Notes under the pieces: model-generated | Told to the model about the DNA's origin: nothing | The model's database searches: none | What the model saw: the letters and a program-made list of their open reading frames with translations, nothing else | Part shown: positions 26,230 to 47,595 of the stretch, piece by piece | How the letters are laid out: each line of letters begins with the position of its first letter | Position numbering within the stretch: the first letter of the stretch is position 1 | Translations under genes and position numbers: made by a program | From: Escherichia phage vB_EcoS_swan01 | Sequence record: NC_048202.1 | Reading direction: 5' to 3' (one strand) | DNA: 50,865 nt

Positions 26230-26250
26230 TTTTAGCAATTAGTGCTATTT
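26230..26250 (-). promoter_or_regulatory. motif copy with atypical downstream context
   Basis: AAATAGCACTAATTGCTAAAA on the minus strand overlapping the TerL stop (TAG); TATAAT lies only 8 nt after TTGCTA and a terminator hairpin follows. Confidence 0.4.
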
Positions 26251-27813
26251 ATTGCGTAGACCAGCCAGCTTTTTCATCCTTGCTACCGGATCATCAGCCA
26301 AGTTCATTTCGACGTTAACAGCATCAACTATATTATCGACAATATCATCATGGGGATGAGAATCGTCAAAAGTGAACGCTGCAACCTCTGCCAGTATCTC
26401 AGGTAACATGGGATGACTTTCTGGCAGTGCCACACGTCCGGCCCTCATTACTGGCGCGGCGTCCATTGCTCGCGTTACCTTGTCATTGCTTCGCTGAACG
26501 GGATTTATATCAATCGGGATCTTCTTTTTGGCCCCCTGAATCAAACCCGTGCCGCTGGCCTTATCCTCAATGTGGATACGTCGCAAGCTGCCACACTCCT
26601 TATTGCGCTTCCAGCACTGATTAACGAAGGCAATAAAATTTAATTCAAGATCCGGCGCTTCCCACTTTCCGCGAATGCCATCAATGAAGTAAACGCGATT
26701 CTTATACATCCCCCAATAACAAAAAACTGAATAGTCGTTAAGCTCTCCGGCCTTCTGCGCGGTATCACCAGTAATAAATGTGTATTCAAAGCGATCCGGT
26801 TTAGGAAGTGCGCATTTTTCGCCGCTGCCGTAATACTGGAACCACTCTGTTTTAAACACGTTGCCGCCAAGCGCGATGGGTTGCTGTTGGTACTGACTGG
26901 CGAACGTATAAGGATCTGCATTGCGCAATGCAAGCAATTCCTCCGCGCTTTCCTTTGCAGGCCAAAATGAATAATGAGCAACGCCATCTATCATCACTGG
27001 CTTACTTGACAACACATCACGATCAAATTCAGGCTTCAACCAATCAGGAAGCGTTTCGCGGTATTCTTTCGTAACCAGCGCCGGAATACTCACAACTTTA
27101 AACTCAATACCACCCATCCCGCCATTAAGCATAAACCAGGTGGAATCATTAACGTGTAGTCGCTGTTGCACCATAACAATCGGCGTAGTGTCTTTCATTC
27201 GACGCGATCGCACTGTGTTTTTTAACCGCATGTGGATCGCCTCACGCTTGACCTTAGAAAGCATATCATCCGGCTTGTCTGGATCGTCCAGAACCAGCAT
27301 ACCAGTAAAACCATCGTCCATATAGCCGCCACGCAAACCTGTTACCTGTCCGCCAATAGAACGTGAGTTAACTTGCAATTTAACCTTGCCGCCATCCGTA
27401 ACTATGAGATCTTTTGCGCTCGCCTTTGCCAGTTTTCCTGGCCATAGCTCTTGCCACTCAGGAGAACCGATAATCTCCTTTATCCTGTTGCTGTTTTGCT
27501 GGACAAGTCCATCACTAAACGAAAGGTTAAGGTTTCTCACCTTCCGACTTTTCAATGACGCGTAGGGTGACATGTGGATCGAGAAAATCTCAGTCTTACC
27601 GCTACCTGGCGTAATGTTGAAAATCACATTCTGCGACTCTCCATTGATGATCTTCTCTACCTCACTGCACAATAAGCTAAAATGCCAGTTGCTCTGGAAT
27701 TTTTGCCCCTGCAATAACTGAAACCAGATTCTGATCATCTTTTCGAATGAATGCTCACTGATTTCTTTAATGGCTCGCTTTTGCGCCGCCGTCAAATCTT
27801 CCCATATGATCAT
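26245..27813 (-). CDS. terminase large subunit
   Basis: 522 aa; Walker A-like ITPGSGKTE and Walker B-like LVLDDPD; C-terminal nuclease-like region; follows TerS. Confidence 0.8.
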   Translation of the reverse strand: MIIWEDLTAAQKRAIKEISEHSFEKMIRIWFQLLQGQKFQSNWHFSLLCSEVEKIINGESQNVIFNITPGSGKTEIFSIHMSPYASLKSRKVRNLNLSFSDGLVQQNSNRIKEIIGSPEWQELWPGKLAKASAKDLIVTDGGKVKLQVNSRSIGGQVTGLRGGYMDDGFTGMLVLDDPDKPDDMLSKVKREAIHMRLKNTVRSRRMKDTTPIVMVQQRLHVNDSTWFMLNGGMGGIEFKVVSIPALVTKEYRETLPDWLKPEFDRDVLSSKPVMIDGVAHYSFWPAKESAEELLALRNADPYTFASQYQQQPIALGGNVFKTEWFQYYGSGEKCALPKPDRFEYTFITGDTAQKAGELNDYSVFCYWGMYKNRVYFIDGIRGKWEAPDLELNFIAFVNQCWKRNKECGSLRRIHIEDKASGTGLIQGAKKKIPIDINPVQRSNDKVTRAMDAAPVMRAGRVALPESHPMLPEILAEVAAFTFDDSHPHDDIVDNIVDAVNVEMNLADDPVARMKKLAGLRNK

Positions 27814-28340
27814 TAAAGTTGCTCCAGAATATCAATAACAGCCTCTTTCACCTCATCGGCAGTTACTGCGTCAATGCTTGCATTAGCTGCCGCGCTAGCT
27901 TCAACGCTCACTGTTGCTGGCTTCTCTACGCCGATCTCTTTACCGATAAATCCAGCATTAATCATGTTATTTGCCGCAAGCTGGAATTTTTGCTCGTAAA
28001 TTACTTTATCAACAAACTCCATCACATCGCAGAATCCAGGCTCTTTACGCCATTTGCTTACGGCAGCCTCAGTCACGCCGAGATACAAGCTGAATCCGTT
28101 AACCGTGAAAACGCGAGGCTTGTAAACTCTGCTCTCGTACACGTCACCCTGAAAGGAAGCAGTTTCAGCCGCCTGGATGTGATTCTCTTCGGCCCAAGTG
28201 AAATAGCGGATCGCCATATCAAAAACCTGTTCCGGCGTGTACTTGTGGCGGTTGTTTAGCGTGACAATATCGCCATAAGTTTTATTATATAACTCTTTGA
28301 AATTTAATGCCTTTACAGCAGGCTCAACATTTTTAGCCAT
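27813..28340 (-). CDS. terminase small subunit (putative)
   Basis: about 176 aa directly upstream of TerL with ATGA-type overlap; AAAGGAGG RBS. Confidence 0.55.
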   Translation of the reverse strand: MAKNVEPAVKALNFKELYNKTYGDIVTLNNRHKYTPEQVFDMAIRYFTWAEENHIQAAETASFQGDVYESRVYKPRVFTVNGFSLYLGVTEAAVSKWRKEPGFCDVMEFVDKVIYEQKFQLAANNMINAGFIGKEIGVEKPATVSVEASAAANASIDAVTADEVKEAVIDILEQL

Positions 28341-28390
28341 TATTAATCCTCCTTTGGTTAGATGCCTGATTATACCAGACAACGGGCAAT

Positions 28391-28420
28391 AAAAAACCCG
28401 CCGTGCGGCGGGTAATTTTT
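28391..28420. terminator. bidirectional rho-independent terminator
   Basis: cccgccg-tg-cggcggg hairpin flanked by A6 and T5. Confidence 0.65.
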
Positions 28421-28643
28421 AAGCTGTATATTTTACTTTTCCATCTTTGGCTCGAATGGAATTTAGGATCTTGCTGCCGATCATCAGGTATTGACCACGT
28501 ACAAGCCATTTCTTTTGTTTTTCGCTCCAGATTGCAGAAGCGTACCAACCTTTATTAATCACGAACTTATAAGCAAAGCGCATGACAACGGAAAAGATAA
28601 TGATAGCCATGATAAAACCAATGCAGAAAGATAATGCGATCAT
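28419..28643 (-). CDS. small membrane protein
   Basis: 74 aa with a strongly hydrophobic N-terminal segment. Confidence 0.45.
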   Translation of the reverse strand: MIALSFCIGFIMAIIIFSVVMRFAYKFVINKGWYASAIWSEKQKKWLVRGQYLMIGSKILNSIRAKDGKVKYTA

Positions 28644-28825
28644 TGTAAAGCCCTCACAAGATTAATTGAAAATTGATGTGTTTCAGGATTAGCGCCCGAT
28701 TGCTCTTTTGCTTTTGCTACTGCTTCCAGTTCATCAAGAGCATCAACTACGCATTCATATTCCTGTTTGCATGATTGGCAGTTACGCCCCATTCGCCGGA
28801 TCGTCATCTTCACTTTGTAATTCAT
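28640..28825 (-). CDS. hypothetical protein (Cys-rich)
   Basis: start chosen at MNYKVKM within track ORF 28640..28921; CxxC...C motif. Confidence 0.35.
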   Translation of the reverse strand: MNYKVKMTIRRMGRNCQSCKQEYECVVDALDELEAVAKAKEQSGANPETHQFSINLVRALQ

Positions 28826-29015
28826 CAGCGACAACCTCACGCTTAATGCTGGTAATGTTGTGAATCGGATAAGCAACATTGCCGATAGAAATGCAAGTTT
28901 CGTCACCGCCAAGCTGATCACTTGTCGCTTCTACTGTAAAGCTGTTAACAAAGCTATTGTAGAAAGGATGAATAACGGTATCACGGAAAGAAACGGTTAA
29001 TTTGTATTTAATCAT
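28782..29015 (-). CDS. hypothetical protein
   Basis: 77-aa ORF with acidic C-terminus. Confidence 0.4.
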   Translation of the reverse strand: MIKYKLTVSFRDTVIHPFYNSFVNSFTVEATSDQLGGDETCISIGNVAYPIHNITSIKREVVADELQSEDDDPANGA

Positions 29016-30360: not shown

Positions 30361-30392
30361 TGCGCTTTCCTCTGTTTCGCTTCAATAAGGGC

Positions 30393-30438
30393 ACTTTACC
30401 AAATGCCCTTGCGGAAGTTTTAACAAAAAGTGCTATTA
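30393..30438 (-). promoter_or_regulatory. motif promoter-like element (AATAGCACTTTTTGTTAAAA, 22 nt, TAAAGT)
   Basis: conserved motif immediately after the stop of 30436..30726, with -10-like hexamer at canonical spacing inside an inverted repeat. Confidence 0.55.
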
Positions 30439-31677: not shown

Positions 31678-31707
31678 GATTGTTTCCTCTCGTTGATTGG
31701 TGTTTGC

Positions 31708-31753
31708 ATTATAGCGAGGCATTGCGCCCCGCGTTTAGCAATTCGTGCTATTT
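31708..31753 (-). promoter_or_regulatory. motif promoter-like element (AAATAGCACGAATTGCTAA, 22 nt, TATAAT)
   Basis: motif overlaps the TAG stop of the kinase gene; perfect TATAAT at canonical spacing. Confidence 0.6.
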
Positions 31754-32338
31754 AATCTGTGTGTGCTTCCATTTGACAGCATTGACGATCTCGTTTACAG
31801 CCAGTTCCGGCTTTCCGTCCTGCAAGTGGAAGTCATAGTGATGGATTCGATAGTGATAACCGCTCAGGTCAATGTAGTCTCTCGAATCGCCAGCAAACGT
31901 GAAGCCGTCGCGATGCAATCGGCAAATATGCACCTCATGCCCTGCCTTAACAAGCGGCTTGACTTCTTCGGGGAATCCTCCATCGCTGATCACAACCGCT
32001 AAATCTCGGTACATCTCGTGAATCTCTTCAACCATTCGACGCCCGAAATAGTGATCCCCAAAGACTGGCTTCATTACATCCTCGCTAATCCAGATCATGA
32101 ATTGTCGAGGTGACTTGCCGCCTAAGATAACTTGAGGCTTTTCTTTTTGCTCTCGGTCGTTGTACAGGTCAATAAACTCATCATATCGAGTCGGGCCAAG
32201 CATGGAAAACGCAATATCGAACATCGGCTGTTTGAATGACGCCTTAACCGCTGGGTAACGATGGCCCGTTAGGTAAGCTGCAATAGTGTCCTTCCCGCAA
32301 CCTGGCGGCCCATTAAGGATGATAATGTCTCGTTTCAT
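31748..32338 (-). CDS. P-loop kinase (dNMP kinase-like)
   Basis: N-terminal Walker A GPPGCGKDT; about 196 aa. Confidence 0.55.
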   Translation of the reverse strand: MKRDIIILNGPPGCGKDTIAAYLTGHRYPAVKASFKQPMFDIAFSMLGPTRYDEFIDLYNDREQKEKPQVILGGKSPRQFMIWISEDVMKPVFGDHYFGRRMVEEIHEMYRDLAVVISDGGFPEEVKPLVKAGHEVHICRLHRDGFTFAGDSRDYIDLSGYHYRIHHYDFHLQDGKPELAVNEIVNAVKWKHTQIK

Positions 32339-32995: not shown

Positions 32996-33026
32996 GATTT
33001 AATCCTCGTTTGTTGTTGATGGGCTT

Positions 33027-33073
33027 ACTATACAGCAAGCCCGATGATCTGTTTTTTGCAAAAAGTGCTATTT
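33027..33073 (-). promoter_or_regulatory. motif promoter-like element (AAATAGCACTTTTTGCAAAAAA, then TATAGT)
   Basis: motif overlaps the TAG stop of the small ORF 33068..33229; -10-like hexamer inside an inverted repeat; leader CATCAACAACAAACGAGGA. Confidence 0.55.
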
Positions 33074-33229
33074 ACGAACGCATAACGCTGTTACATCCTT
33101 CCCACTATCTGACATGTGGAGAATAACTTGCTTTCGCGCTTCCTGGCATCTTGATTCGCCGTGGAACTCCTGCGACTCAATAGCTGCGGAGTTGTAACTT
33201 GTGACAAAGATTAAAAGCAACCAAGTCAT
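33068..33229 (-). CDS. small hypothetical protein (53 aa, below the ORF-track cutoff)
   Basis: ATG overlaps the stop of the HAD-like gene (ATGA); GGAG RBS; hydrophobic N-terminus; stop TAG lies inside the conserved motif. Confidence 0.45.
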   Translation of the reverse strand: MTWLLLIFVTSYNSAAIESQEFHGESRCQEARKQVILHMSDSGKDVTALCVRK

Positions 33230-33765
33230 TTTAAACACTCCACGCCGTGAGATTTCAGGTGAGCGTGTGGCTTGTCGTATTCCGTGACCTGATAGGTTGT
33301 GATTCCCAGGCTGCGGAAGTGCTTAACAACGTTCGGCGAATCGTCAAAGGCGCAAACAATATTGTCCAGGCCAATAGCGCGCAATGCTTCTTCTTTAATA
33401 ACCGTATCCTTTCGGTTGTCCTCCTGGCGGCGCATGATGATTTCGTCAAACTTCACGCCGTTCTCATTCAACCATTTGCATGTTTCATAGCGCACTTCGT
33501 CGCTGCGTCCGGTCAAGATGACGATGGCAAATCCCGACACCCACAAACCGTTAATAACCGCGATCGTGCTTTTAATCGGTGAATCTCCGGCGGCGGCCCT
33601 GTTAAATTCGCTCCACGATTCCGTAAGGTGTAAGTTTTCAGTTGGCAGCAAATGCAAACGATGCGATCCGTCCGATAGTGTGCCGTCCAGGTCAACGATA
33701 ACAATCGGCTTGCTGGTGATTAATTCGTACTTCTTGCCCCATAGTTCGAAAGTGTATTTTTTCAT
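33226..33765 (-). CDS. HAD-superfamily phosphatase-like protein
   Basis: VIVDLDGTLSDGSHR contains the DxDGT motif of HAD hydrolases (as in PNK 3'-phosphatase or nucleotidase domains). Confidence 0.55.
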   Translation of the reverse strand: MKKYTFELWGKKYELITSKPIVIVDLDGTLSDGSHRLHLLPTENLHLTESWSEFNRAAAGDSPIKSTIAVINGLWVSGFAIVILTGRSDEVRYETCKWLNENGVKFDEIIMRRQEDNRKDTVIKEEALRAIGLDNIVCAFDDSPNVVKHFRSLGITTYQVTEYDKPHAHLKSHGVECLK

Positions 33766-33776
33766 TATAAAACCTA

Positions 33777-33998
33777 TCAATTAAAATGGATTTGCTTGTA
33801 TTCTATTTCATCTGCCAGATCATTTAACTTATCTGCCAGCTTGCGCACTTGGTCAACGGTAAGTATCGACCTAAAATCCGGCCTACGCCCACCCTCAAAC
33901 GTGCCATCAATAAAAACTCGATCGCCAAACTTGTATACATCAATCGCGTCGCCGTGGTTATCAGTAAACCTGTGCTTGACGCGCTTATTTGTTTTCAT
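33777..33998 (-). CDS. hypothetical protein
   Basis: 73-aa ORF. Confidence 0.45.
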   Translation of the reverse strand: MKTNKRVKHRFTDNHGDAIDVYKFGDRVFIDGTFEGGRRPDFRSILTVDQVRKLADKLNDLADEIEYKQIHFN

Positions 33999-34448: not shown

Positions 34449-34477
34449 CGTTTTATCTCCTTCGTTGAAAGTAGGGC

Positions 34478-34524
34478 CATTATACCTGGCCCCACATTTG
34501 AGTTTTAACAATTCGTGCTATTTA
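34478..34524 (-). promoter_or_regulatory. motif promoter-like element (AAATAGCACGAATTGTTAAAA, ~21 nt, TATAAT)
   Basis: motif directly follows the TAA stop of 34522..35415; perfect TATAAT within an inverted repeat; about 30-nt leader to the next ATG. Confidence 0.6.
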
Positions 34525-35430: not shown

Positions 35431-35613
35431 TTACTTAATTCTAACTTCAACGTCAATATCTGCGTTAGGGGCGAATAGCTGCGCCTTGCCATTTACACGA
35501 ATTGTAAGAATGTTCTCTTTGCGGCAGTTATCCAGCACTAGGCGATATTTGCCAGCAAACTTAACCATCATTCCCGGCTTGACTTCTCTCATTTTGATGA
35601 TCTTATCCATCAT
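35431..35613 (-). CDS. hypothetical protein
   Basis: 60 aa, AAAGGGG RBS; preceded by a ~200-nt untranslated GC-rich leader. Confidence 0.45.
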   Translation of the reverse strand: MMDKIIKMREVKPGMMVKFAGKYRLVLDNCRKENILTIRVNGKAQLFAPNADIDVEVRIK

Positions 35614-35815
35614 TAACCCCTTTCACATAAATAACCGTTTAATCTTTGGTGACGGGCTTCACTTCGTCGGTAGCCTCAGTTCAGTGACCTATCTAGCGTT
35701 CTGCCTGGTGGCGAGTGTGATAGTTCTGGCCTCACGGTTGGGAATCCTGACACTTCGATCAAGCCCCTGCGTCGCTCCTCTCCCGCAGCAATCCTTGCCG
35801 CCCGTCTATGTGTGT
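35614..35815 (-). ncRNA. candidate structured 5' leader / noncoding RNA
   Basis: about 200 nt between a motif promoter and the next RBS with no credible ORF; GC-rich with long-range complementarity (GACGGGC...GCCCGUC). Confidence 0.3.
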
Positions 35816-35861
35816 ATTATGCCTGGTTATCGTTTTTGAGTTTTAACAAAAAGTGCTATTT
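35816..35861 (-). promoter_or_regulatory. motif promoter-like element (AAAATAGCACTTTTTGTTAAAA, 22 nt, CATAAT)
   Basis: motif overlaps the TAG stop of the lipoprotein gene; -10-like hexamer at canonical spacing. Confidence 0.6.
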
Positions 35862-36128
35862 TGTCTCGACGGTCATATGTTCTGTCTTCGTGCCTTTGCC
35901 ATTGCTTTTCGACACTTCCCAGCTAGTCGTGCCCTTACAGTTGGTGAAGTAAACAGTGCGATCGTCATAGAATCGGTAAACGGTGCAACCGTCAGCGGTG
36001 AATAGCTCCCTTACGCTGTAGTCATCGCCAGGGTTAGCCATCTGCACATTGCCAACATGCGCGCCATCTTCTTTGCATCCGGTCAGGAATGCCATTGCCG
36101 CCAAAACGCTGATTAATGCCTTTTTCAT
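35856..36128 (-). CDS. lipoprotein
   Basis: start at MKKALISVLAAMAFLTGC (signal peptide plus lipobox); ATGA overlap with the upstream gene. Confidence 0.55.
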   Translation of the reverse strand: MKKALISVLAAMAFLTGCKEDGAHVGNVQMANPGDDYSVRELFTADGCTVYRFYDDRTVYFTNCKGTTSWEVSKSNGKGTKTEHMTVETK

Positions 36129-36589
36129 TGCTCTTCCTCTTTGATGATTTCGCGGATCATATCCTGGTAGCGGCTTACGCCCTCGCAAGCCCCAGCCAGT
36201 TTATCCCCTTCCAGGTCCACGATGTTCGGGATTGCTGCCAGTATGCGATCGGCAAACTTTTTGATCGCCCTTGCCTTGATGGCTGGCAATTCTTCTGGTG
36301 TGATGATTTTCCTTTTCGATTCGCGGACCATGCGGAAAACGTAAAATTTATCATCTTCCGTTTCCTCTACCTTGATACTTACCCGACCTGCGGCCCTTAC
36401 TTCTGGAACGCGGTTGATAATGGTCCGGCTGTAGGATGAACTGCGCGTGATCTTGTAGCAGTCGTCACCGCTTAACATTCCGGCCAGGTCAATTAGTGAC
36501 ATTTTATACTCTTCAATATCGCCACTAGCCAGGCGGCGACCAAGCTCGCGAAGCCAATCGCAATAGTCCTTAGTGGTCTTCTGTTCCAT
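36125..36589 (-). CDS. hypothetical protein (first gene of a leftward operon)
   Basis: start at MEQKTTKDY with GGAGGAAAGGA RBS, about 30 nt downstream of a consensus sigma70 promoter. Confidence 0.55.
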   Translation of the reverse strand: MEQKTTKDYCDWLRELGRRLASGDIEEYKMSLIDLAGMLSGDDCYKITRSSSYSRTIINRVPEVRAAGRVSIKVEETEDDKFYVFRMVRESKRKIITPEELPAIKARAIKKFADRILAAIPNIVDLEGDKLAGACEGVSRYQDMIREIIKEEEQ

Positions 36590-36620: not shown

Positions 36621-36649
36621 ATTATAAAAGCTATTTGGTGCGTGTCAAT
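36621..36649 (-). promoter_or_regulatory. consensus sigma70 promoter (TTGACA-N17-TATAAT)
   Basis: perfect -35 and -10 hexamers with 17-bp spacer read on the minus strand, upstream of gene 36125..36589. Confidence 0.65.
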
Positions 36650-36789
36650 GTTTTTGTTGTATTCAAAACGTTACCAATATCGAAAAACTACAAAATCATG
36701 CGCAAGTTATTGATTTCAGGGCTGTTATTTTTCTGTTCACGCTGTTAACGCAATCCGCCGGAAAAAGTATATATACATATGCAATCCGC

Positions 36790-36960
36790 CGCGCGCGCAA
36801 CTATCCATATATACCCACACACAACCACACCATAACCAACAAAAAGCACTGTAACAGTGAGAACAAAAAGAAAACATTATAGATATATATAAATAAATAA
36901 TCTTTATTTTCAATGTATTATAGAGGGATTTTTTTGTTTTTTTCGTTTTCGCTACACCGG
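36790..36960. repeat. AT/CA-rich intergenic element, related to the one at ~6640-6800
   Basis: shared strings ccacacacaaccacacc...aacaaaaag and ataaataaataa; direct repeat gcaatccgccg x2; inside a 660-bp non-coding region. Confidence 0.5.
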
Positions 36961-37083
36961 AAAACCGCGCGGAAACACGCCGCCTGAAATCGGTAACAGG
37001 GGTGAACAAAAGACAACAACCGCTGACAGCCAGGCGGAAAAGTGAGGCAAGAGGGGAAGGTTTCACTATCTCCCCTGCAACCA

Positions 37084-37180
37084 ATGATTAAACGTGATTA
37101 CTTTTCTCATCAAATTTGCAAAGGCAATCATCATTTTGACGTGATTTGATTACGAATGATTACTTTTGATTATTTCGATC
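37084..37180. repeat. iteron-like direct and inverted repeats of ATGATT/TGATTAC
   Basis: at least 5 copies of (A)TGATTAC(TTTT) within ~100 bp just upstream of the first rightward motif promoter. Confidence 0.5.
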
Positions 37181-37201
37181 ACAATCCTGGTGCTAACCGT
37201 C

Positions 37202-37247
37202 AAATAGCACTTTTTGTTAAAAATCAGGCCGCCTGATCGGGTACATT
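37202..37247 (+). promoter_or_regulatory. motif promoter-like element (AAATAGCACTTTTTGTTAAAA, 22 nt, TACATT)
   Basis: first promoter of the rightward small-gene block; leader CATCGAAACGAACC precedes the RBS. Confidence 0.6.
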
Positions 37248-37282
37248 ACACACATCGAAACGAACCGCTCAGGAGATAGTAA

Positions 37283-38244: not shown

Positions 38245-38508
38245 ATGAAAATTAATGCACCTATTCCAGTTAAGCGCAAAGCACGTTTGCTAAATAACGG
38301 ATGTTACGCCCTGCGGCCCGCATTTAAGGATCGCACATTTCCGGTTATCGTTAACGTGTCTCACGTAAGCCGTAGCGGAAACCTGGTATTCGTTAAAGGT
38401 GAAGATCTGACGGCACTTGGATTCTATGGCGGTGTTCACGGCGAACCGCTCGGATTCTGGCTTGTAAATCCGTTAACTGGAGAGCGTGAAATCGAATTTC
38501 TGGACTAA
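38245..38508 (+). CDS. hypothetical protein
   Basis: 87 aa, AAGGAG RBS. Confidence 0.55.
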   Translation: MKINAPIPVKRKARLLNNGCYALRPAFKDRTFPVIVNVSHVSRSGNLVFVKGEDLTALGFYGGVHGEPLGFWLVNPLTGEREIEFLD

Positions 38509-38552
38509 ATAGCACTTTTTGTTAAAAACGATGCGCTGCTGATTGGTATAGT
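38507..38552 (+). promoter_or_regulatory. motif promoter-like element (AAATAGCACTTTTTGTTAAAA, 22 nt, TATAGT)
   Basis: motif starts inside the TAA stop of 38245..38508; -10-like hexamer inside an inverted repeat. Confidence 0.6.
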
Positions 38553-38583
38553 AAGCGCATCGACAACAAACGAGGATTTAAAG

Positions 38584-39487: not shown

Positions 39488-39708
39488 GTCAAGACGGATT
39501 TTTTGAGCGCCTTCAAATGGCAGAAGATGCCGGACTAAATAAAGAGGCGGCGCTTGAAGTGGCATATAAAATTAAGAGTCTTGATGAGGCTTTAGGTGAT
39601 ATGGATATGGATCTTGAATCAAGCGCAATATTTGCAGATCCCACTATGATTGTTAATGATTGTGGATGCGATTTCGATCCTGGTTGTCCGCGCTGTTTTC
39701 CGTTTTGA
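39484..39708 (+). CDS. hypothetical protein
   Basis: 74 aa, acidic, C-terminal CGCDFDPGCPRC. Confidence 0.5.
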   Translation: MSQDGFFERLQMAEDAGLNKEAALEVAYKIKSLDEALGDMDMDLESSAIFADPTMIVNDCGCDFDPGCPRCFPF

Positions 39709-39718
39709 GGTAATGACG

Positions 39719-40429
39719 ATGTATAAAGGTTTAATATTCTCCCTATTTGATGGATCTGGTAAAGCAGTTAAAGATTGGGCTGATAATGGCTATAAGTGCA
39801 TTTGCTTTAATGCTGACGGCGGCGATCACGGTGATTACCAGTCAGTGCGCATACAGCATGAGAATATCGAATACGTTAACGTCTGGATTGATGATGCTTT
39901 TTATGTTAAGGCAATCAATAATGAGTGGGGCAATCCTGATTTTATTATGGCGTTCCCTCCTTGCACCGACCTTGCAAATAGCGGATCTCGCCATTGGGCC
40001 AAAAAACGCCTTGAGAATCCATCGTTCCAGGATGAGGCCGCCGACACTTGCAGAATCGCGGCTGATATAGCTGATTATTTCGGTGTTCCTTACATGATCG
40101 AAAATCCGGTTGGCAAGTTGTCAACGTTATGGCGTAAGCCTGATTATACGTTCCATCCGTGCGATTACGCTGGCTATCTGCCGGAAGATGATAAACATCC
40201 CGACTTCCCTGATATTATTCCGGCGCGTGATCGCTATTTTAAGAAAACGTGCCTCTGGACTGGCAACGGCTTTGTTATTCCTCCGCGCGCTTTAATCCTG
40301 CCGAAAGAGGAAGACAAAGATAATCCAGGCTGGGCCAAAACTGGCGGCAAGTCATCGCGCACAAAGATGATCCGCTCCCTCACTCCGCGCGGATTTGCTC
40401 GCGCCGTCTTTGAGTCAAACTCAAAATAG
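39719..40429 (+). CDS. DNA (cytosine-5) methyltransferase-like protein (putative)
   Basis: motif I-like LFDGSG, motif IV-like FPPCTD...SG and motif VI-like ENPVG in the canonical order; start could also be ATG 39713. Confidence 0.45.
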   Translation: MYKGLIFSLFDGSGKAVKDWADNGYKCICFNADGGDHGDYQSVRIQHENIEYVNVWIDDAFYVKAINNEWGNPDFIMAFPPCTDLANSGSRHWAKKRLENPSFQDEAADTCRIAADIADYFGVPYMIENPVGKLSTLWRKPDYTFHPCDYAGYLPEDDKHPDFPDIIPARDRYFKKTCLWTGNGFVIPPRALILPKEEDKDNPGWAKTGGKSSRTKMIRSLTPRGFARAVFESNSK

Positions 40430-40469
40430 CACTTTTTGTTAAAAGCCAGGTGTAAAAACCTGGCATAAT
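40424..40469 (+). promoter_or_regulatory. motif promoter-like element (AAATAGCACTTTTTGTTAAAA, 22 nt, CATAAT)
   Basis: TAG stop of the upstream gene lies at motif positions 4-6; inverted repeat in the spacer; leader CATCGAACAAACAAAGGAG. Confidence 0.6.
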
Positions 40470-40498
40470 CACATCGAACAAACAAAGGAGATCTGATC

Positions 40499-40885
40499 AT
40501 GAATGTTATCTGTAATGAAACCAACGTATTGATGAAAGGCCGTTTTAAAACGGTTTATCAGAAGATTGCAGGAAGTGATGATGTGATCGAGGTGGAAGAG
40601 TTCCAGGTTAAGACGCTTGTTAAGGGTAGCCGCTGGCTTCCAGCAAACCGAGATGATTACCGCGCCATTAACACAAAAACCGTTCTTTGCACGTTTGTAG
40701 ATCATAACATGCCGTGCAAAAAGCACTTTAAGCAGGGCAAGCGATACCAGATCGAGAAAGGGCGACCGCTTGGAAGCGTTGCGGGTTATGTTTTTGATGA
40801 GTGCGGCGACCGCTGGAACCTGTACCGTGAAGAGGTCGGATTCTCTGCTGGCGGCTGTTATCTGTTTGAGGGCAAATATCTGTGA
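40499..40885 (+). CDS. hypothetical protein
   Basis: 128 aa. Confidence 0.5.
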   Translation: MNVICNETNVLMKGRFKTVYQKIAGSDDVIEVEEFQVKTLVKGSRWLPANRDDYRAINTKTVLCTFVDHNMPCKKHFKQGKRYQIEKGRPLGSVAGYVFDECGDRWNLYREEVGFSAGGCYLFEGKYL

Positions 40886-41103
40886 TAAACAGTGAAAACC
40901 GTTACAAAGTAACGCATTCTACCACAAAGACTTTCAAGCCTGGCGATATAGTCAGGCCCATCAAAAAAACTGCGGTAGGTTGGCTGATTGGTTTTTCATA
41001 TCATAAGGCGCTTTACTTTACGTTTAAGGATGGGATTACAGGAGAATGCTACAGCGACCGCCAGCCTGATCGACTTCTGGTTGCAATAGAGCGGATCAAA
41101 TAG
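40882..41103 (+). CDS. small protein (possible member of the small paralog family)
   Basis: 73 aa; TFKPGDIV motif resembles MFKPGEIY of 34227..34448. Confidence 0.5.
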   Translation: MINSENRYKVTHSTTKTFKPGDIVRPIKKTAVGWLIGFSYHKALYFTFKDGITGECYSDRQPDRLLVAIERIK

Positions 41104-41143
41104 CACTTTTTGACAAAACGGGGTAGTATTGGGACGTTAAAAT
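41098..41143 (+). promoter_or_regulatory. motif promoter-like element (AAATAGCACTTTTTGACAAAA, 22 nt, TAAAAT)
   Basis: variant with TTGACA in place of TTGTTA; TAG stop embedded; precedes the 526-aa P-loop protein gene. Confidence 0.55.
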
Positions 41144-41171
41144 TTACGGCCCACAAAGGAGAAGCTAACGA

Positions 41172-42752
41172 ATGTTTTCATTAGAAACGAACAAATTAAC
41201 TCCACAACAAATAATCGCTATGGCTGAAAGCCAGAACCTCTCACCAGTTCGCGTATCAATTCAGGCTAACGGCTATCGCCAGTCGTCCAGCTTTTGGGGC
41301 GACGTAAAGGATGTGAATAGCGGTCACGATCGCTACCCCGTTATTTCTCTTGGTAATGATATTGATGTTGTCGGCAAGTTATCACGCAGCATTGCGCGAT
41401 CCGTTCAATTCCCTGAATCATCGGCTTACATGCACTTTATCGGCTGCATTTCTGCCGCTATGCTTGGACGCTTTACGGTTGACTATCACGGAACCGATCA
41501 GCCGACTGCGCTTTACGTCGTTACAAGCCAGCCGCCGTCAACTGGTAAATCTGCGATCAACAGCATGGCTATTGCTCCGATGATTGCGGAAGTTGAGAAG
41601 ATCAACGAGCAACGCCGCAAGGAAAGAAAGAAAATACAGGCAAAGCTGGCAGGTCTTGCAAAGGAGATGAAAAGCGAAAGATCCGGCGCTGATATGGAAT
41701 CTCTATACCAGGAAAAAGAGGATCTGGAGGAAAAGCTGGAAAAAATGTGTGATATAACTTTTCCTGTTTCAGATACAACTCCAGAAGGCTTGGCGAAAAT
41801 CAACAACAAGCAAGGTAACTTTGCCGTAATATCTGATGAAGCAACAAGTATTAACAGTCTGTTAGGCTTGACCTATGCAAATAGCGAAAGGAAGACTAAC
41901 AGTGAGTTAGTGCTTAAGGCGTGGGATAATGGTCACGTATCAATTGCCCGTGCTAATGCTGACAATAATATGAGTTTTCGCGCGCTTGGATGTATGAGCG
42001 TCATAGCCCAGGATGAAACGATAAGCGGAATCATGGACGCTGGATCGCGAGGCATCGGTGTTAGTGAGCGTTTTTTGTTGGTCCGCGAGGAATCATTCTT
42101 AGGCCGTCGCTCATTCATTGATGAAAATGGTGATTCTACCTATGAGGCGGTGGATTCTGAATTGAAAGCCCAATATTATCAATTGGTGCATAACATCATG
42201 AGCGAATCAAATATATCGCTGAAAATAAGCCGTTCAGCTATGCGAGTGCTCAACATTGCTCGCCAGGATATGGAACCGCATCTTGCAGACGGAGGAAAGT
42301 ATTCTCATACAATGTTACGCGGTGCGCTGGGTAAAATGGATAAACAGGTGATCAGGCTTGCTTCCGTCCTGCATGTTATCCGTAACTGGTTTAATCCTGC
42401 CGGATACCCGCAGAAGTCGAAAGAGATCGACGTGGAAACAATGCAAGAGGCGTTGATCATGTTTCAGGAATTGAGCAAAACATACATTAGCGCCGCCAAT
42501 GCTTCTGGTTATGCTGGTGATGATGCTGAAATGGGTAAATTGATTGAATTGATCACGAGGCACGGCAAGGCTAATAAAGGGATTCTGAATATCCGCGCCC
42601 TGTACGAATCAGCGAGAAAGGTAAAACCTTTCGTTGGTCAGGCTGGCGTAATGAAAAGGATAGAAGGGCACTTACTGCCAATGCTGGAAGAAAGAAATTA
42701 TGTTTGTGTGATTAATGGTGTTATTTTTGTCAATCCAATACTGCTGGGATGA
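41172..42752 (+). CDS. P-loop NTPase, replication-associated (putative)
   Basis: 526 aa; Walker A-like SQPPSTGKSA; no further family assignment possible by eye. Confidence 0.5.
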   Translation: MFSLETNKLTPQQIIAMAESQNLSPVRVSIQANGYRQSSSFWGDVKDVNSGHDRYPVISLGNDIDVVGKLSRSIARSVQFPESSAYMHFIGCISAAMLGRFTVDYHGTDQPTALYVVTSQPPSTGKSAINSMAIAPMIAEVEKINEQRRKERKKIQAKLAGLAKEMKSERSGADMESLYQEKEDLEEKLEKMCDITFPVSDTTPEGLAKINNKQGNFAVISDEATSINSLLGLTYANSERKTNSELVLKAWDNGHVSIARANADNNMSFRALGCMSVIAQDETISGIMDAGSRGIGVSERFLLVREESFLGRRSFIDENGDSTYEAVDSELKAQYYQLVHNIMSESNISLKISRSAMRVLNIARQDMEPHLADGGKYSHTMLRGALGKMDKQVIRLASVLHVIRNWFNPAGYPQKSKEIDVETMQEALIMFQELSKTYISAANASGYAGDDAEMGKLIELITRHGKANKGILNIRALYESARKVKPFVGQAGVMKRIEGHLLPMLEERNYVCVINGVIFVNPILLG

Positions 42753-43144
42753 TTATGTTTTTGCTTGATCTGTATAAATGGTGTGAGTCATACGACTGGT
42801 TTAACAGGCAGCACATAGCCAAATTTATCTATCAGCATAGAGAATGTGAGCGGCTCGCACGGGCCGCCGGACTTACTCCGCGAATGTTCGCCAGCCTTGC
42901 ATCTAAGGAATTTTGCGCAAGAATGATGACGGCTGGCTATATAGATGGGGTATGCGGTAAATACTGGTCCAAAGGATCGTCAAAGCGGCCTTTCGGATTC
43001 GAATTTTATAGCCTGGATGGTATGCGCAACGACTGGATCAGGGATATGGCTAGAATAGTGGAGATGGGCGATGATGAATTGTTCCAGGCAAAAGCTAATA
43101 GACAAGATCTTGAAGCACTGCGCCGTAAATTCAATATCACATGA
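42749..43144 (+). CDS. hypothetical protein
   Basis: 131 aa, ATGA overlap with upstream gene. Confidence 0.5.
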   Translation: MIMFLLDLYKWCESYDWFNRQHIAKFIYQHRECERLARAAGLTPRMFASLASKEFCARMMTAGYIDGVCGKYWSKGSSKRPFGFEFYSLDGMRNDWIRDMARIVEMGDDELFQAKANRQDLEALRRKFNIT

Positions 43145-43265
43145 TGATTTTATTCATGCTTTACTTACGCTACTTTATTCAGATATGCGAGCTTTTAGCA
43201 CCACTGAACATGTTTTATGCAATGATGATGGTGTGTTATTGGTTACAGTAAAGCGTATGGAATAG
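43071..43265 (+). CDS. hypothetical protein (uncertain start, overlaps upstream gene)
   Basis: its TAG stop is embedded in the conserved motif as for other genes, but the ORF overlaps 42749..43144 by 74 nt. Confidence 0.3.
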   Translation: MMNCSRQKLIDKILKHCAVNSISHDDFIHALLTLLYSDMRAFSTTEHVLCNDDGVLLVTVKRME

Positions 43266-43305
43266 CATTTTTTGTTAAAACTCCCGACCTTGTGTCGGGT
43301 ATATT
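43260..43305 (+). promoter_or_regulatory. motif promoter-like element (GAATAGCATTTTTTGTTAAAA, 22 nt, TATATT)
   Basis: hairpin cccgac-cttgtg-tcggg in the spacer; leader CATCGAAACGAACC. Confidence 0.55.
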
Positions 43306-43342
43306 TGTTTCATCGAAACGAACCAACCAAAAAGGAAAAATT

Positions 43343-43567
43343 ATGTACAGCAAGTTTTTAGTAGTTCGCGTATACAATCATGCAAATGGATCTTCTTCTG
43401 AAATCCCGACAGTTTACGATAAGGATTCAGGCTGGAGTGAGCAATCGGCGGTTGAAAATGAGCGCAAGATTGCAGAAATGTACGGCGACACTTGCAGCAT
43501 TGAAGTAAGGCAGTACGACGAATCGAACAAGCCAACAAACGAAACTCATATGTGGCCCGACGCATAA
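43343..43567 (+). CDS. hypothetical protein
   Basis: start at MYSKFLV with AAAAAGGAAA RBS. Confidence 0.5.
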   Translation: MYSKFLVVRVYNHANGSSSEIPTVYDKDSGWSEQSAVENERKIAEMYGDTCSIEVRQYDESNKPTNETHMWPDA

Positions 43568-43570
43568 AAA

Positions 43571-44680: not shown

Positions 44681-44703
44681 TTTTATTCTCCATATTAATT
44701 AAA

Positions 44704-44717: not shown

Positions 44718-44825
44718 CGAATGATAAACGTACATGGTAAAAAATTAAACAAAAAAAAGAGGCGACAAACGCCGCCCCTTTGCAAGTTTTTGATTTAATT
44801 TGTCATTGATTTAAATAAAAATTCA

Positions 44826-45941
44826 TCAATTCATCATTTCTGGATAGTGAACAAATCGCCCAACCTCTCCATGCTCTTTGTCGTAAATGATAACCGCCGC
44901 ACGGCGTCGAGATCTCCAGCCACCTCGCGCGGCGTATGCGTCTTTTGCCGCCAGGGTGCTATGCACCTCAACGATGCCAAGCGACGTTTCTGTCACGGTC
45001 TGGTGATGCCAGTGCCCTACGTGCGCATACATCGTTTTTGAGTTTCCGAAGTCCTCCCGCCAATCTGACGCGCACATCATTAGCAAAGTCTCCGGTTTAC
45101 GCACTGTGTGCCCGTGATGGTACGCAAGGAAAGTTTTTCCGTATTGCGTGTGGTGCACAACGCGAGGTGAAACATCAACGTAAACGCGCGGCTCGTTTTC
45201 ATATGCTGCCGCCATTGCTGCGCGCAGCCAAATCATTCCTGATTGGTCATGATTGCCCTCTACGATCTGGACTTCAACATGTTTATGCTTTAACAACATT
45301 TTATTGATTGCGCGTCGCATTGCACGGATGGCAACGTAAACCAATTTTGCATATCGACTATCTTGATCCAGTACGTGACCGCTTGCAGGTGTAACCGCCT
45401 CCAGGCCGTCGCTATGCAGCATATCGCCACCAATCAGGATGACAGCCTTTTCGCTATCCGGTGCGCACATTAAAGCATAGTCGATAAAGTTATTCATAAC
45501 GCGCTCTGCCGTGGCAGTATCCCAATTTTCGCCGCATTCGTGCTTATGGGCCATAGCTCCTAAGTGCATGTCAAAGATCGGATACAAGGAAAGCGTTTCG
45601 TTATAGTCGCGCTCCTGTAATGGAACCGGATCTAATCGCGGCACTTCCTCGCTAAATGCCTCCATTGCTGCGAGCATTAATGCTTCTAATTGCTCTTTAT
45701 CCTTGCTGGTTTTAGTCCACTTTAGGATTATGTTGCCTTCTTTGTCAGTCATTACTGACTCACCATGAACTCCAAAACCAGGCGCTCCAATGGTGGATAC
45801 CTGGCCTTGCTTTGCAAGTCGCGCCGCGCGACGCTCGACGCTTCTCACATTCATTCCGTACTCTTGAGCGATCTGTTTATATGTCTTACCCGCCGCCCGT
45901 TCGATCTTGAATTGCTCATCTGTAATTTTTACATTTTTCAT
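44826..45941 (-). CDS. calcineurin-like metallophosphatase with N-terminal HTH-like domain
   Basis: GDMLHSD and GNHD metallophosphoesterase motifs; N-terminal TYKQIAQEYGMNVRSVERR helix-turn-helix-like segment; start at MKNVKIT with AGGTGG RBS. Confidence 0.6.
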   Translation of the reverse strand: MKNVKITDEQFKIERAAGKTYKQIAQEYGMNVRSVERRAARLAKQGQVSTIGAPGFGVHGESVMTDKEGNIILKWTKTSKDKEQLEALMLAAMEAFSEEVPRLDPVPLQERDYNETLSLYPIFDMHLGAMAHKHECGENWDTATAERVMNNFIDYALMCAPDSEKAVILIGGDMLHSDGLEAVTPASGHVLDQDSRYAKLVYVAIRAMRRAINKMLLKHKHVEVQIVEGNHDQSGMIWLRAAMAAAYENEPRVYVDVSPRVVHHTQYGKTFLAYHHGHTVRKPETLLMMCASDWREDFGNSKTMYAHVGHWHHQTVTETSLGIVEVHSTLAAKDAYAARGGWRSRRRAAVIIYDKEHGEVGRFVHYPEMMN

Positions 45942-46035
45942 TCTGCCACCTATCTCATCACTATATGGTACATAACTGTAACAGCGATGATAACGGGTAA
46001 CGGTAGAACAAACAAGCGCCACATGATAACTATCC

Positions 46036-46278
46036 TCATTTATAATATTTGCGAGGCTCTCGGATTTTAGCCATTGCCTCTTTGAAATCAATTTTTGTTG
46101 GAACTGCTGGAACTCTTACCATTTTTCGCGGCCTTTCCTTGAGGAAAGTCATCTTATCGCCGCTAATTATGCTCACATCTGCAATATCAAAGTATTGCGC
46201 GATCTTCTTTATATCGTCGGCTATTCCGCATTCTTTAGCGTGATTCCATACCGCCTCTCTACCTTGCTCAACCTTCAT
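46036..46278 (-). CDS. hypothetical protein
   Basis: start at MKVEQGREAV inside track ORF 46036..46299. Confidence 0.45.
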   Translation of the reverse strand: MKVEQGREAVWNHAKECGIADDIKKIAQYFDIADVSIISGDKMTFLKERPRKMVRVPAVPTKIDFKEAMAKIREPRKYYK

Positions 46279-46453
46279 GCTTATAATATGCCTCAGCAAA
46301 TTCTAATGGGTAGTGACCATATGCAACGCGAAGTAGAATCATTGCAGCGCCCCAATCAAGCTGCATATTGTTTTTCGTTCCACCTTTTACCGCATCGCGT
46401 GCTGTTTGTTGCGCCTGGTCAAATGCTTTCTTGCTGTATACTACCATTTTCAT
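46268..46453 (-). CDS. hypothetical protein
   Basis: 61 aa; leader CATCGAAACGAACGTGAGGAAATGAAA from the motif promoter. Confidence 0.5.
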   Translation of the reverse strand: MKMVVYSKKAFDQAQQTARDAVKGGTKNNMQLDWGAAMILLRVAYGHYPLEFAEAYYKHEG

Positions 46454-46479
46454 TTCCTCACGTTCGTTTCGATGAAATA

Positions 46480-46525
46480 ATTATGCCCGACAAAATGCCG
46501 GGCGTTTTAACAAAAAGTGCTATTA
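46480..46525 (-). promoter_or_regulatory. motif promoter-like element (AATAGCACTTTTTGTTAAAA, 22 nt, CATAAT)
   Basis: follows the stop of 46523..46780; inverted repeat in the spacer; conserved leader. Confidence 0.6.
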
Positions 46526-46780
46526 GTGGATCATTCCGTTCTGAAAATTCCACGAATCGACAAACTCTTGCATGTCATTTCTTATTTGTTCGTGCCATTT
46601 TTCAAGAGGTAGTTTTCTTGTATCCTCAAAGCTCATATCTAATGCGCTTGAAAATTCCCACGGATCGCAATCAATCATCTTTTTCACGTTAGGGTTTTTA
46701 TCAAGTGCATCGCACACCATAGCGCGAAATAACAACCACTCGCCAGTTTCATTTAAATAAACGCTTCTCTCTTTTTTCAT
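46523..46780 (-). CDS. hypothetical protein
   Basis: 85 aa. Confidence 0.5.
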   Translation of the reverse strand: MKKERSVYLNETGEWLLFRAMVCDALDKNPNVKKMIDCDPWEFSSALDMSFEDTRKLPLEKWHEQIRNDMQEFVDSWNFQNGMIH

Positions 46781-46784
46781 CGTG

Positions 46785-47510
46785 TTAGCTCCGTTTGCGC
46801 GCGCGGCGTTCGGTTACAGAAGGGCAAATATCGCTGATCTTAACGTATCGCGTTTTCTGCTCTTCGCCTTCTTTAAGTTTACGCATGACAAAAATCACGC
46901 TCCCCTTATTGTTGCCCTGTACAGGCTCGCCAGTCAATCCAGACACAAAGGCGATTCTTCCGGTGCGGGAATATTCCACTCCCCCCTCTTCGTAAACCTC
47001 GCCAGTGATCCAGATGATTTCAGCCGCGTTTTTCTGCGCCTCATAAAACCATGCTGTAGAGTTGTCGGATGGCAACAAAACATCAATTTGGTTGTTGTGC
47101 TCCATTTGCTCAATTGCTTTCTTGATAAATGGAGTTGGGTTGCTGTACGGCGGGTTAAGCCATACGTGCTTGTTGCTACCCCACCAACGCTTTAAGCAGT
47201 TTGTTTCCTTGCTATAGAACTTCTCGCAAACTGCGTTTTCATGGCTTGCTGCCGCGTCGAGATCGTATTCACCAAATTCTGATTCCATCCACTCCACGAT
47301 CTCTTGAGGCGTGCTCCACATATCGCGCACAACGTCCGGCGTAGTGCTTCCAGCGTATCGGTTGCCGCTTACCTTATAATATTGATTTGGCTTTACTGCC
47401 TGGTAATGGCCTCCAGTTGCAAGGGCATTCCCTATAAATGTTTCTCTCTCCAACTGCTCAAAGCTAACGAATGCGTCATGGGTGTCTTTATCTAAAATAT
47501 CTTTAGCCAT
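46785..47510 (-). CDS. DNA N6-adenine methyltransferase (phage Dam-type)
   Basis: DLDAAAS and NPPY motifs in the order typical of phage Dam-family MTases; 241 aa. Confidence 0.7.
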   Translation of the reverse strand: MAKDILDKDTHDAFVSFEQLERETFIGNALATGGHYQAVKPNQYYKVSGNRYAGSTTPDVVRDMWSTPQEIVEWMESEFGEYDLDAAASHENAVCEKFYSKETNCLKRWWGSNKHVWLNPPYSNPTPFIKKAIEQMEHNNQIDVLLPSDNSTAWFYEAQKNAAEIIWITGEVYEEGGVEYSRTGRIAFVSGLTGEPVQGNNKGSVIFVMRKLKEGEEQKTRYVKISDICPSVTERRARKRS

Positions 47511-47549
47511 TTCATTTCTCCGCTATTAAAAGCTATCTCGTGTTATTGA

Positions 47550-47595
47550 ATTATGGCGCAATCCATCGCGCCAGTTTTAACAAAAAGTGCTATTT
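47550..47595 (-). promoter_or_regulatory. motif promoter-like element (AAATAGCACTTTTTGTTAAAA, 22 nt, CATAAT)
   Basis: TAG stop of the VRR-NUC gene embedded in the motif; drives the Dam gene. Confidence 0.6.

Follow-up and report, generated by a model that had tools for sequence, protein, structure and literature searches.

The genome of Escherichia phage vB_EcoS_swan01 (NC_048202.1; the whole 50,865-nt stretch analysed is referred to here as the window) carries many copies of a 21-nt element opening with ATAGCAC, and the stop codons of upstream genes fall within or against it. Two described systems are closest to it. The first is a 21-nt direct repeat, aaATAGCACnnnTTGnTAAAA, reported in 2024 at 21 places in phage TLS, ~76 nt upstream of start codons and oriented along transcription; a repeat of this type occurs in T1, Rtp and Rogue1 too (PMC11447400). 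The TLS repeats were called intergenic and their function was left as an open question, with a stoperator, an enhancer site or an UP element suggested; the main text does not mention stop codons, an overlap, a hairpin or stem-loop, or PeSLs (see below), and the section on the repeat assigns no -10 (PMC11447400).

The second system comprises the promoter-early stem-loop (PeSL) cassettes of T4-like myoviruses (Arbiol et al. 2010, PMC2839356; Comeau et al. 2014, PMC4122927). Experiments with the PeSLs of RB49 and phi1 revealed strong promoters, effective terminators and PeSL-mediated modular shuffling (PMC2839356; PMC4122927). PeSLs serve as promoters using the host RNA polymerase and as terminators or attenuators for incoming transcripts; mini-circle formation has been demonstrated for RB49/phi1 only (PMC2839356). 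That a stop codon opens the promoter cassette is an already described PeSL feature (PMC2839356, Fig. 2 legend).

The window belongs to Warwickvirus (Drexlerviridae, Tempevirinae), whose relatives are T1-like virulent siphoviruses, and its positions 26000-48000 are 98.7-99.1% identical to Escherichia phages vB_EcoD_Phunderstruck and tonn. This region contains early, DNA-metabolism and packaging genes, transcribed leftward from ~36.6 kb and rightward from ~37.3 kb. The window element shares with the TLS repeat the motif itself, the number of copies (~18-21 per genome), the distance of ~76 nt to start codons and the TTT, GAA and AAA subtypes; unlike the TLS repeats, three window copies are oriented opposite to the late genes around them. 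The 21-mer is already known as a published repeat and stop-opened promoter cassettes are known as a PeSL feature; what is new is the predicted promoter anatomy, the PeSL homology and the sharing with T4-like phages. We propose that the overlap with TAG probably reflects compaction onto a PeSL-type promoter/terminator cassette whose first element happens to contain this triplet, so that the stop-codon overlap is a feature of compaction and no new mechanism.

Stop codons at the ATAGCAC motif

Motif positions are numbered from the A of ATAGCAC (position 1). The sequence AAATAGCAC occurs 12 times in the window against 0.8 expected, and none of 100 shuffles reached 12. A weight-matrix scan recovered 18-19 copies of the extended 21-mer, (a)aATAGCACnnnTTGnTAAAA, with the general form (T)AAATAGCAC-TTT/GAA/TAA-TTG-(T/C)-TAAAA. 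The open reading frame (ORF) reading into each copy was located by frame analysis. A co-directional upstream gene is present at 13 copies, and in all 13 its stop codon lies inside the motif or touches it: eight genes end with the TAG at positions 2-4, four with a TAA that abuts or overlaps the motif, and one with TAA at position 15 (Table 1).

The first-pass annotation had listed eight genes with a TAG stop built into the motif, and all eight ends are borne out. It had also named three genes with a TAA directly abutting ATAGCAC, which is correct for those ending at 34522 and 38508; the TAA at 30436 overlaps A1 instead, giving a tandem TAA-TAG. All of the ends that it listed were recovered, and a second overlap with A1, at 46523 on the minus strand, was missing from the list. 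The 64-aa ORF that ends at 43265 is without annotation in tonn and overlaps an annotated YdbL-like gene (42749..43144); it looks coding, because the changes between phages at its C-terminus are mostly synonymous.

The six other window copies have no co-directional upstream gene, three of them lying in divergent regions and three being inverted. ATAGCA(C/T) is intact in all six, and the conservation of the TAG must therefore have a reason other than translation termination.

Annotations of related phages contain the same junctions, and the association of stop and motif holds throughout the family. In the RefSeq annotation of tonn (99% identical; region 1-27665, corresponding to window ~23.5-50.9 kb), all seven TAG stops among 56 coding sequences are motif TAGs and five TAA stops abut or overlap the motif, and there is not a single TAG stop among the 44 genes that end elsewhere. 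Six of seven copies agree in the first 14 kb of the curated TLS annotation, as do six of seven in the first 9 kb of T1.

When IMG/VR was scanned for exact matches, 120 stretches came back, almost all on contigs of ~50 kb that resemble T1-like genomes. The longest upstream ORF (cut-off 50 codons) was located in 399 unique motif contexts from T1-like IMG/VR contigs; it ends at the TAG at position 2 in 195 contexts and at positions -1, -2 and 15 in 33, 29 and 29, respectively. When the upstream C-termini were clustered, 123 families were obtained, with stops at the TAG at position 2 (50 families), -1 (11), -2 (10), 12 or 15 (11) and further upstream (39); in part of the last group an intervening small ORF (<50 codons) ends at the TAG. 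Eighty-two of the 123 families are fused to the motif, and 61 of these 82 are in the TAG frame (74%; binomial p = 3e-14 vs 1/3). Among genes whose stop precedes the motif, the TAG frame is under-represented (17 vs 32 and 39 in the other two).

The exact junction is kept between strongly diverged orthologues—the C-termini of the VRR-NUC proteins, for example, differ in sequence and all stop at the motif TAG—and C-termini within one family vary by in-frame changes in length with the TAG retained. The last codon is NAA or NGA, with A1 as its third base and usually the motif's A as its second; AAA (Lys) was counted 113 times, GAA (Glu) 51 times and CAA (Gln) 10 times. Since the motif supplies the last one or two bases of the final codon, it constrains the coding end. 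Both the constraint on C-termini and the fusion of gene ends with the next transcription signal, without slack, had been anticipated in the first-pass annotation. The gaps that hold cassettes in this compact phage genome consist of the cassette alone.

Predicted promoter anatomy, hairpin and relationship to PeSLs

A logo of 382 motif contexts from T1-like contigs, in about half of which the upstream gene stops at the motif TAG, has TATAAT at positions 39-44 (T.67 A.92 T.79 A.66 A.55 T.92; -12 to -7), G in 87% of contexts at position 37 (-14) and A in 85% at position 51 (+1). These are followed by a CA-rich leader (CCCATCGAAACGA; also CCCATCGAAACGAA), a Shine-Dalgarno site and a start codon at positions 71-85 (71-84 in the window copies). 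Because the -10, the G at -14 and the A at +1 follow at a fixed distance, the 21-mer spans -52 to -32 of the predicted promoter. The conservation of ATAGCAC, TTG and TAAA is far above that of the -10.

Several known designs were considered for this arrangement and rejected. A canonical sigma-70 promoter was discarded because a scan with 16-18-bp spacers misses the cassettes. Sigma-54 promoters (TGGCAC-N5-TTGCW) have GG at -24 and GC at -12, 12 bp from G to G; the window motif has AG in place of GG and a G-to-G spacing of 10 bp (TAGCACTTTTTGC). The T4 MotA box, (a/t)(a/t)(a/t)TGCTT(t/c)A, is centred near -30 and 11-13 bp from the -10; the TTTGCTAAA sequence is box-like but ends ~20 bp from the -10, and a MotA-dependent middle promoter was likewise rejected. 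A deliberate three-frame stop design (TAA at -2, TAG at 2 and TAA at 15) is not supported, as T at -2 reaches just 30% in the logo and is not conserved beyond the copies that use that stop. There is a resemblance to E. coli sigma-70 promoters with UP and extended -10 elements, in that A/T tracts (TTTTT..AAAA) lie upstream of a -10 with G at -14 and there is no well-placed -35. The window tracts are, however, ~8 bp nearer the -10 than the canonical UP element, and UP elements are degenerate, whereas ATAGCAC in the window is invariant and contains G/C.

A GC-rich inverted repeat, variable in sequence among copies, occupies the spacer that follows the 21-mer or else spans the -10. Two placements are seen, with the stem at positions 20-39 or with the arms flanking the -10, and the 5' starts of the stems cluster at positions 19-22, which is 15-18 nt past the TAG. 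Nine of the 19 window copies fold at -12 kcal/mol or below, a value reached by 1.9% of 36-nt background windows. Copies fused to an upstream ORF have a mean fold energy of -11.9 kcal/mol, compared with -4.2 kcal/mol for copies into which no ORF reads (Mann-Whitney p = 3e-7). The fold is more stable in the sense than in the antisense strand (window copies, -9.6 vs -7.5 kcal/mol; the large set agrees in direction), and 30 of the 81 sense four-base loops are GNRA, compared with one of 31 antisense loops. At one orthologous junction the stems of different phages are unrelated in sequence and all still pair. The sense bias, the GNRA loops, the strength with upstream read-in and the re-pairing stems are the signature of an RNA hairpin acting on upstream transcripts.

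A search of Rfam gave no match anywhere in the window, and a known RNA family was rejected on this ground. An integron attC-like recombination site (conserved ends, variable palindrome, internal stops), judged from inspection of the sequence, was also rejected, given the bias of the hairpin towards sense RNA and the promoter geometry.

In the phi1 PeSLs examined, the order is TAA-aaagtg-TTGACA-17 bp-CATAAT; a hairpin surrounds the -10, the leader is CCCATCGAAACGAG, and the distance from stop to -35 ranges from 6 to 58 nt. A T1 cassette and phi1 PeSL199/198 are identical at 44 of 54 positions, with a score of 59 compared with 13.6 +/- 2.2 (maximum 25) for shuffles. The T1-type TTGTTAAAAC aligns with phi1 GTGTTGACAC in a multiple alignment, which places (C/T)TAAAA at the -35 position and the ATAGCAC box in place of the phi1 AT-rich tract. 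By these alignments, T1-type cassettes are homologous to phi1 PeSLs from the -35 region through the leader, with a different module upstream.

Other similarities are those of layout and context. Both are intergenic elements that open with the upstream stop and continue with a promoter, a stem-loop between -35 and -10 or over the -10, a Shine-Dalgarno site and a start codon; both are present in many copies beside small ORFans, with module breakpoints at the elements; and the leader CCCATCGAAACGA is shared. The window cassettes differ in their invariant ATAGCAC-nnn-TTG box, where PeSLs have an AT-rich tract and TTGACA, in their non-canonical spacing (TTG at 22 bp; (C/T)TAAAA with a 19-bp spacer) and conserved G at -14, and in having a fixed in-motif TAG, whereas the PeSL stop is a TAA at variable distance. 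They are also found in siphoviruses (Drexlerviridae), with promoter and terminator activity predicted from the sequence.

One of the IMG/VR motif matches is Klebsiella phage KP15, a T4-like phage of the genus Slopekvirus. It contains two T1-type cassettes (GU295964; ~262-352 and ~613-690 in the reverse complement of 9500-10700), and a further one is present in RB43 (AY967407; ~700-777 of the stretch examined). These cassettes are complete, with ATAGCAC box, hairpin, TATAGT and CATCGAAAC leader, and they lie between T4-like genes, beside TTGACA-type PeSLs with the same leader. The upstream stops in the KP15 motifs are one TAG and one TAA overlapping A1; the KP15 record labels the cassettes as putative (middle) promoters, a label derived from MEME only. 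No Drexlerviridae homologues were found for the flanking KP15 genes (13A and 13B), which have T4-like homologues only; a transfer of gene plus cassette from a T1-like phage to KP15 was rejected for this reason, and it is therefore the regulatory cassette that is shared across families and not the genes. This distribution shows that the cassette is exchangeable between families, and it favours a host-encoded factor as the likely reader of the 21-mer.

The window was also compared with tonn, tonnikala and tonijn by indel mapping, and breakpoints were found at cassette positions -8 to -2, 18-19, 45 and 70-81. Approximately 6-7 of 20 gap boundaries lie inside cassettes, which cover ~5% of the region. 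A 230-nt unit (promoter plus 50-aa ORF) is inserted in tonnikala and tonijn exactly at the motif at 34521, and 407 nt downstream of cassette 35859 (35432-35840) are replaced relative to tonn, with the breakpoint at motif position 19, and differ from tonnikala and tonijn as well. The pattern appears to fit PeSL-style shuffling. An enrichment of high-scoring segment pair ends against IMG/VR fragments (14.8% vs 4.8% expected) was set aside as confounded by hairpin variability, and indel mapping was used instead.

Explanations for the overlap

According to the compaction model, a composite cassette of ~75-85 nt would occupy all of the space that separates transcription units in T1-like phages, in the order 21-mer (-52 to -32), variable stem-loop, extended -10, +1 A, CA-rich leader, Shine-Dalgarno site and start codon. 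Genome streamlining would delete intergenic DNA until the coding region meets the first fixed base of the promoter element. A gene arriving in the TAG frame (xxA-TAG) would gain no foreign residues, and its terminating ribosome would stand ~16 nt short of the hairpin; the second frame would add (N/H/D/Y)STFC or STNC, with a stop at position 15; and in the third frame the motif would offer no stop, so that the gene's own TAA would have to abut it exactly. Gene-cassette fusions made by deletion would be best tolerated, and so would survive, in the TAG frame, and this tolerance would account for the 74% frame bias, the depletion of that frame among upstream stops, the in-frame sliding of C-termini and the fixed Lys, Glu or Gln as last residue. 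Judging from the sequence statistics and the PeSL experiments, the hairpin would act on read-in RNA as a terminator, attenuator or 3'-end stabiliser, and the 21-mer would act on the DNA as an upstream promoter element, with RNA polymerase alpha, sigma or another factor as candidate readers.

A number of observations weigh against this model. Neither compaction nor a generic UP element accounts for the near-invariance of ATAGCAC. With 22 bp between it and the -10, the invariant TTG is too distant to serve as a sigma-70 -35 element, and the hexamer that aligns with the phi1 -35 is only (C/T)TAAAA, with a 19-bp spacer; because of the distance of the TTG, a standard sigma-70 scan of the window (16-18-bp spacer) does not pick up the cassettes, and this spacing probably explains why the TLS authors called almost no promoters. 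Some copies do seem to form textbook terminators, but the U-tract is missing in most hairpins (the 8 nt that follow the stem contain 2.45 T on average), which are not canonical intrinsic terminators and would for this reason be better called attenuators or 3'-end stabilisers. The enrichment of breakpoints is confounded, intergenic DNA being the natural place for module boundaries, and the context counts are pseudo-replicated by orthologous copies, for which counts by family are only a partial remedy. Transcript-end or transcription start site data for T1-like phages were not found in the searchable literature, and we therefore infer the promoter, +1 and terminator roles.

The position of the stop could itself be under selection, with the terminating ribosome placed just upstream of the hairpin so as to set termination against read-through into the next cassette, or to protect the upstream mRNA as far as its 3' hairpin. 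The clustering of stem starts after the TAG and the retention of the junction across diverged orthologues speak for such functional coupling. Copies with the stop at position 15 also more often have a hairpin that starts at position 26 or beyond (64% vs 37%, Fisher p = 0.024), and their hairpins are weaker in a fixed folding window (-9.4 vs -11.9 kcal/mol); the effect is weak, however, its counts are pseudo-replicated, and copies with the stop at -1 are shifted likewise (65%). In about one third of the families the stop lies well before the motif, which shows that an exact position is dispensable, and the wide range of stop-to--35 distances in the phi1 PeSLs also argues against coupling. We consider this explanation unlikely, and it would in any case be compatible with compaction as an added layer.

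Similarly doubtful is the possibility that ATAGCAC-N3-TTG defines a distinct promoter class with its own reader factor, and not a degenerate sigma-70 promoter; its TTG is more distant from the -10, by half a helical turn, than sigma region 4 would allow. The cassette would then move between Drexlerviridae, Slopekvirus and Pseudotevenvirus independently of genes, and the in-motif amber codon would be selected for closing any ORF, parking the ribosome short of the hairpin and tuning read-through.

The 21-mers might alternatively be operator-like sites for a phage protein, either a stoperator-type repressor or an activator, with the stop overlap incidental. The TLS authors had proposed a stoperator or enhancer-binding site (PMC11447400), and the conservation of ATAGCAC, TTG and TAAA relative to the -10 would suit a binding site. 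Candidates for the protein are the Cro-like regulator at 50094-50570, with its weak helix-turn-helix match of Cro/YdaS type, and an early DUF protein; the perfect TTGACA-16-TATAAT promoter at 36648-36621(-) might allow an early factor to be made first. Pfam searches with ten early proteins identified no binding protein for the 21-mer; they returned a sub-threshold Cro/YdaS helix-turn-helix (in the 158-aa regulator), DUF7174 and DUF4884. The stoperators of mycobacteriophage L5 are similar in being short asymmetric repeats present in many copies, in short intergenic spaces and mostly oriented along transcription. Unlike these, the window copies are at fixed spacing to the -10 and +1, are present also at the first promoters of divergent operons, and belong to a virulent phage with no known repressor. 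The presence of the same box in the T4-like KP15 and RB43, next to genes without Drexlerviridae homologues, points to a host-encoded reader instead. We regard the operator explanation as quite unlikely; it concerns who reads the 21-mer and does not conflict with the cassette model.

It is very improbable that the 21-mer acts as an RNA element, as had been suggested initially, either as a processing site (for example for RNase E at ACUUU or GAAUU) or as a ribosome-release signal. The motif is transcribed at the ends of upstream messages, and nnnTTG in the AAA and GAA subtypes fits the loose RN|WUU preference of RNase E. Against this, the motif, TAG included, is fully conserved at promoters without an upstream transcript and in inverted copies, its spacing to the -10 and +1 is fixed, and Rfam returned no match in the window. 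The part of the suggestion that survives is a role at the RNA level for the adjoining hairpin, which behaves as an RNA element—sense-biased, GNRA-rich and strong only with read-in—and not for the 21-mer itself. Chance or an ORF-calling artefact, for which the short ORFs ending at 43265 (64 aa, unannotated in tonn) and 33068 might be cited, has negligible probability and is already refuted for the long genes. Whereas a start may be assigned wrongly, a stop is fixed by a genuine reading frame; the terL, methyltransferase and VRR-NUC genes, all long and well annotated, close at the motif TAG; the three independent annotations, of tonn, TLS and T1, concur; and the motif count is far in excess of expectation (12 vs 0.8).

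Compaction onto a PeSL-type cassette would explain the near-exclusive location of amber stops in one motif in these genomes. The question posed by the TLS repeat receives a concrete, testable answer, namely that the repeat opens a PeSL-type cassette for which a -10, a +1 and an RNA hairpin are predicted. Few promoters are at present called in Drexlerviridae, whose annotation is thereby improved, and transcription units and module boundaries become predictable for phage engineering.

Individual cassettes and neighbouring features

Table 1. Cassettes and motif copies of the window. Hairpins, -10 elements and +1 positions are predictions; for cassettes 38506..38583, 43260..43342 and 46454..46525 the +1 is predicted at 38559, 43312 and 46473; copy positions are given where used in the text, and stop positions in brackets refer to motif numbering.
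Cassette	Strand	21-mer or motif copy	Upstream stop	Upstream gene or ORF	Hairpin	-10	+1	Next start	Remarks
6867..6942	+	copy 6869				extended -10, TGTATAGT			divergent region, no upstream gene
26175..26250	-	26230-26250	TAG 26245-26247 (2-4)	terL, 26245..27813	~26190-26223, strong terminator	missing at canonical spacing		26174 (portal)	atypical
30361..30438	-	30418-30438	TAA 30436-30438, overlaps A1		~30380-30417 (-14 to -18 kcal/mol by window folded)			30360	tandem TAA-TAG, motif TAG next in frame
31678..31753	-	31733-31753, GAA subtype	TAG 31748-31750 (2-4)	196-aa gene, 31748..32338	31714-31732	TATAAT 31708-31713	31701	31677
32996..33073	-	33053-33073	TAG 33068-33070 (2-4)	56-aa ORF ending 33068 (tonn gp21 homologue)	~33021-33042, flanks -10	TATAGT		32995
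34449..34524	-	34503-34523, GAA subtype	TAA 34522-34524, abuts ATAGCAC	297-aa gene	~34471-34495, GGGGCC..GGCCC around -10	TATAAT		34448
35809..35861	-	35841-35861	TAG 35856-35858 (2-4)	110-aa gene, 35856..36188	none	CATAAT 35816-35821
37202..37282	+	copy 37204; AAATAGCAC intact			weak (-5.8 kcal/mol)	TACATT 37242-37247	37254	37283	first rightward cassette; divergent region, no upstream gene
38506..38583	+	38507-38527	TAA 38506-38508, abuts		around -10	TATAGT 38547-38552		38584
40424..40498	+	40424-40444	TAG 40427-40429 (2-4)	DNA methyltransferase, 39650..40429	40445-40464	CATAAT 40464-40469		40499
41098..41171	+	41098-41118, TTGACA variant	TAG 41101-41103 (2-4)	73-aa gene, 40882..41103	weak	TAAAAT 41138-41143		41172 (helicase)
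43260..43342	+	copy 43262, variant GAATAGCAT	TAG 43263-43265 (2-4)	conserved 64-aa ORF, 43071..43265	43283-43299	TATATT 43300-43305		43343
46454..46525	-	46505-46525	TAA 46523-46525, overlaps A1		46485-46503	CATAAT 46480-46485		46453	tandem TAA-TAG
47511..47595	-	47575-47595	TAG 47590-47592 (2-4)	VRR-NUC gene, 47590..48009	47554-47573	CATAAT 47550-47555	47543	47510
50007..50084	-	copy 50082, ATAGCAT variant			almost nil (-1.9 kcal/mol)				divergent region, no real upstream gene; predicted promoter driving helicase operon
50552..50625	+	copy 50554, degenerate, ACAGCACGAATAGCTAATG	TAA (15)	Cro-like regulator	terminator hairpin with GATAAT in its loop, after the stop			50626 (primase)
	-	888-908, copy 906							inverted
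	+	17647-17667, copy 17649							inverted
	+	21400-21420, copy 21402							inverted

The three inverted copies oppose the flanking late or structural genes and are directly upstream of the ribosome-binding sites of these genes. Copy 17649 combines a G at -14, a canonically spaced TAGATT and an A at +1, and it faces a terminator-like GC hairpin, GGGGCG-CAA-CGCCCC (~17722-17737), with a run of A before it and a run of T after it. This arrangement predicts that transcription from the copy would yield a very short antisense RNA.

The perfect sigma-70 consensus promoter at 36621-36648(-) faces the leftward operon, whose first product is a DUF7174 protein. It is located in ~660 nt without an annotated gene (36623-37282), between the divergent early operons, and may represent an immediate-early type of promoter separate from the cassettes.

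In the polynucleotide kinase region, tonnikala (7561-8271) and tonijn have a single 711-nt ORF ending at the motif; in the window (33068-33780) and tonn the gene has 540 nt, and the motif TAG closes a distinct 162-nt ORF. At the place equivalent to 35432-35840, tonn, tonnikala and tonijn have an additional cassette and a 61-aa gene. The window instead has a ~200-nt leader, GC-rich at its start, before a 60-aa ORF (35431-35613); no structured RNA was found in this leader after cassette 35859 (fold z-score +0.81). Finally, in place of window 43105-43566, which includes cassette 43262, tonnikala (18566-19233) has other sequence with an HNH endonuclease gene.

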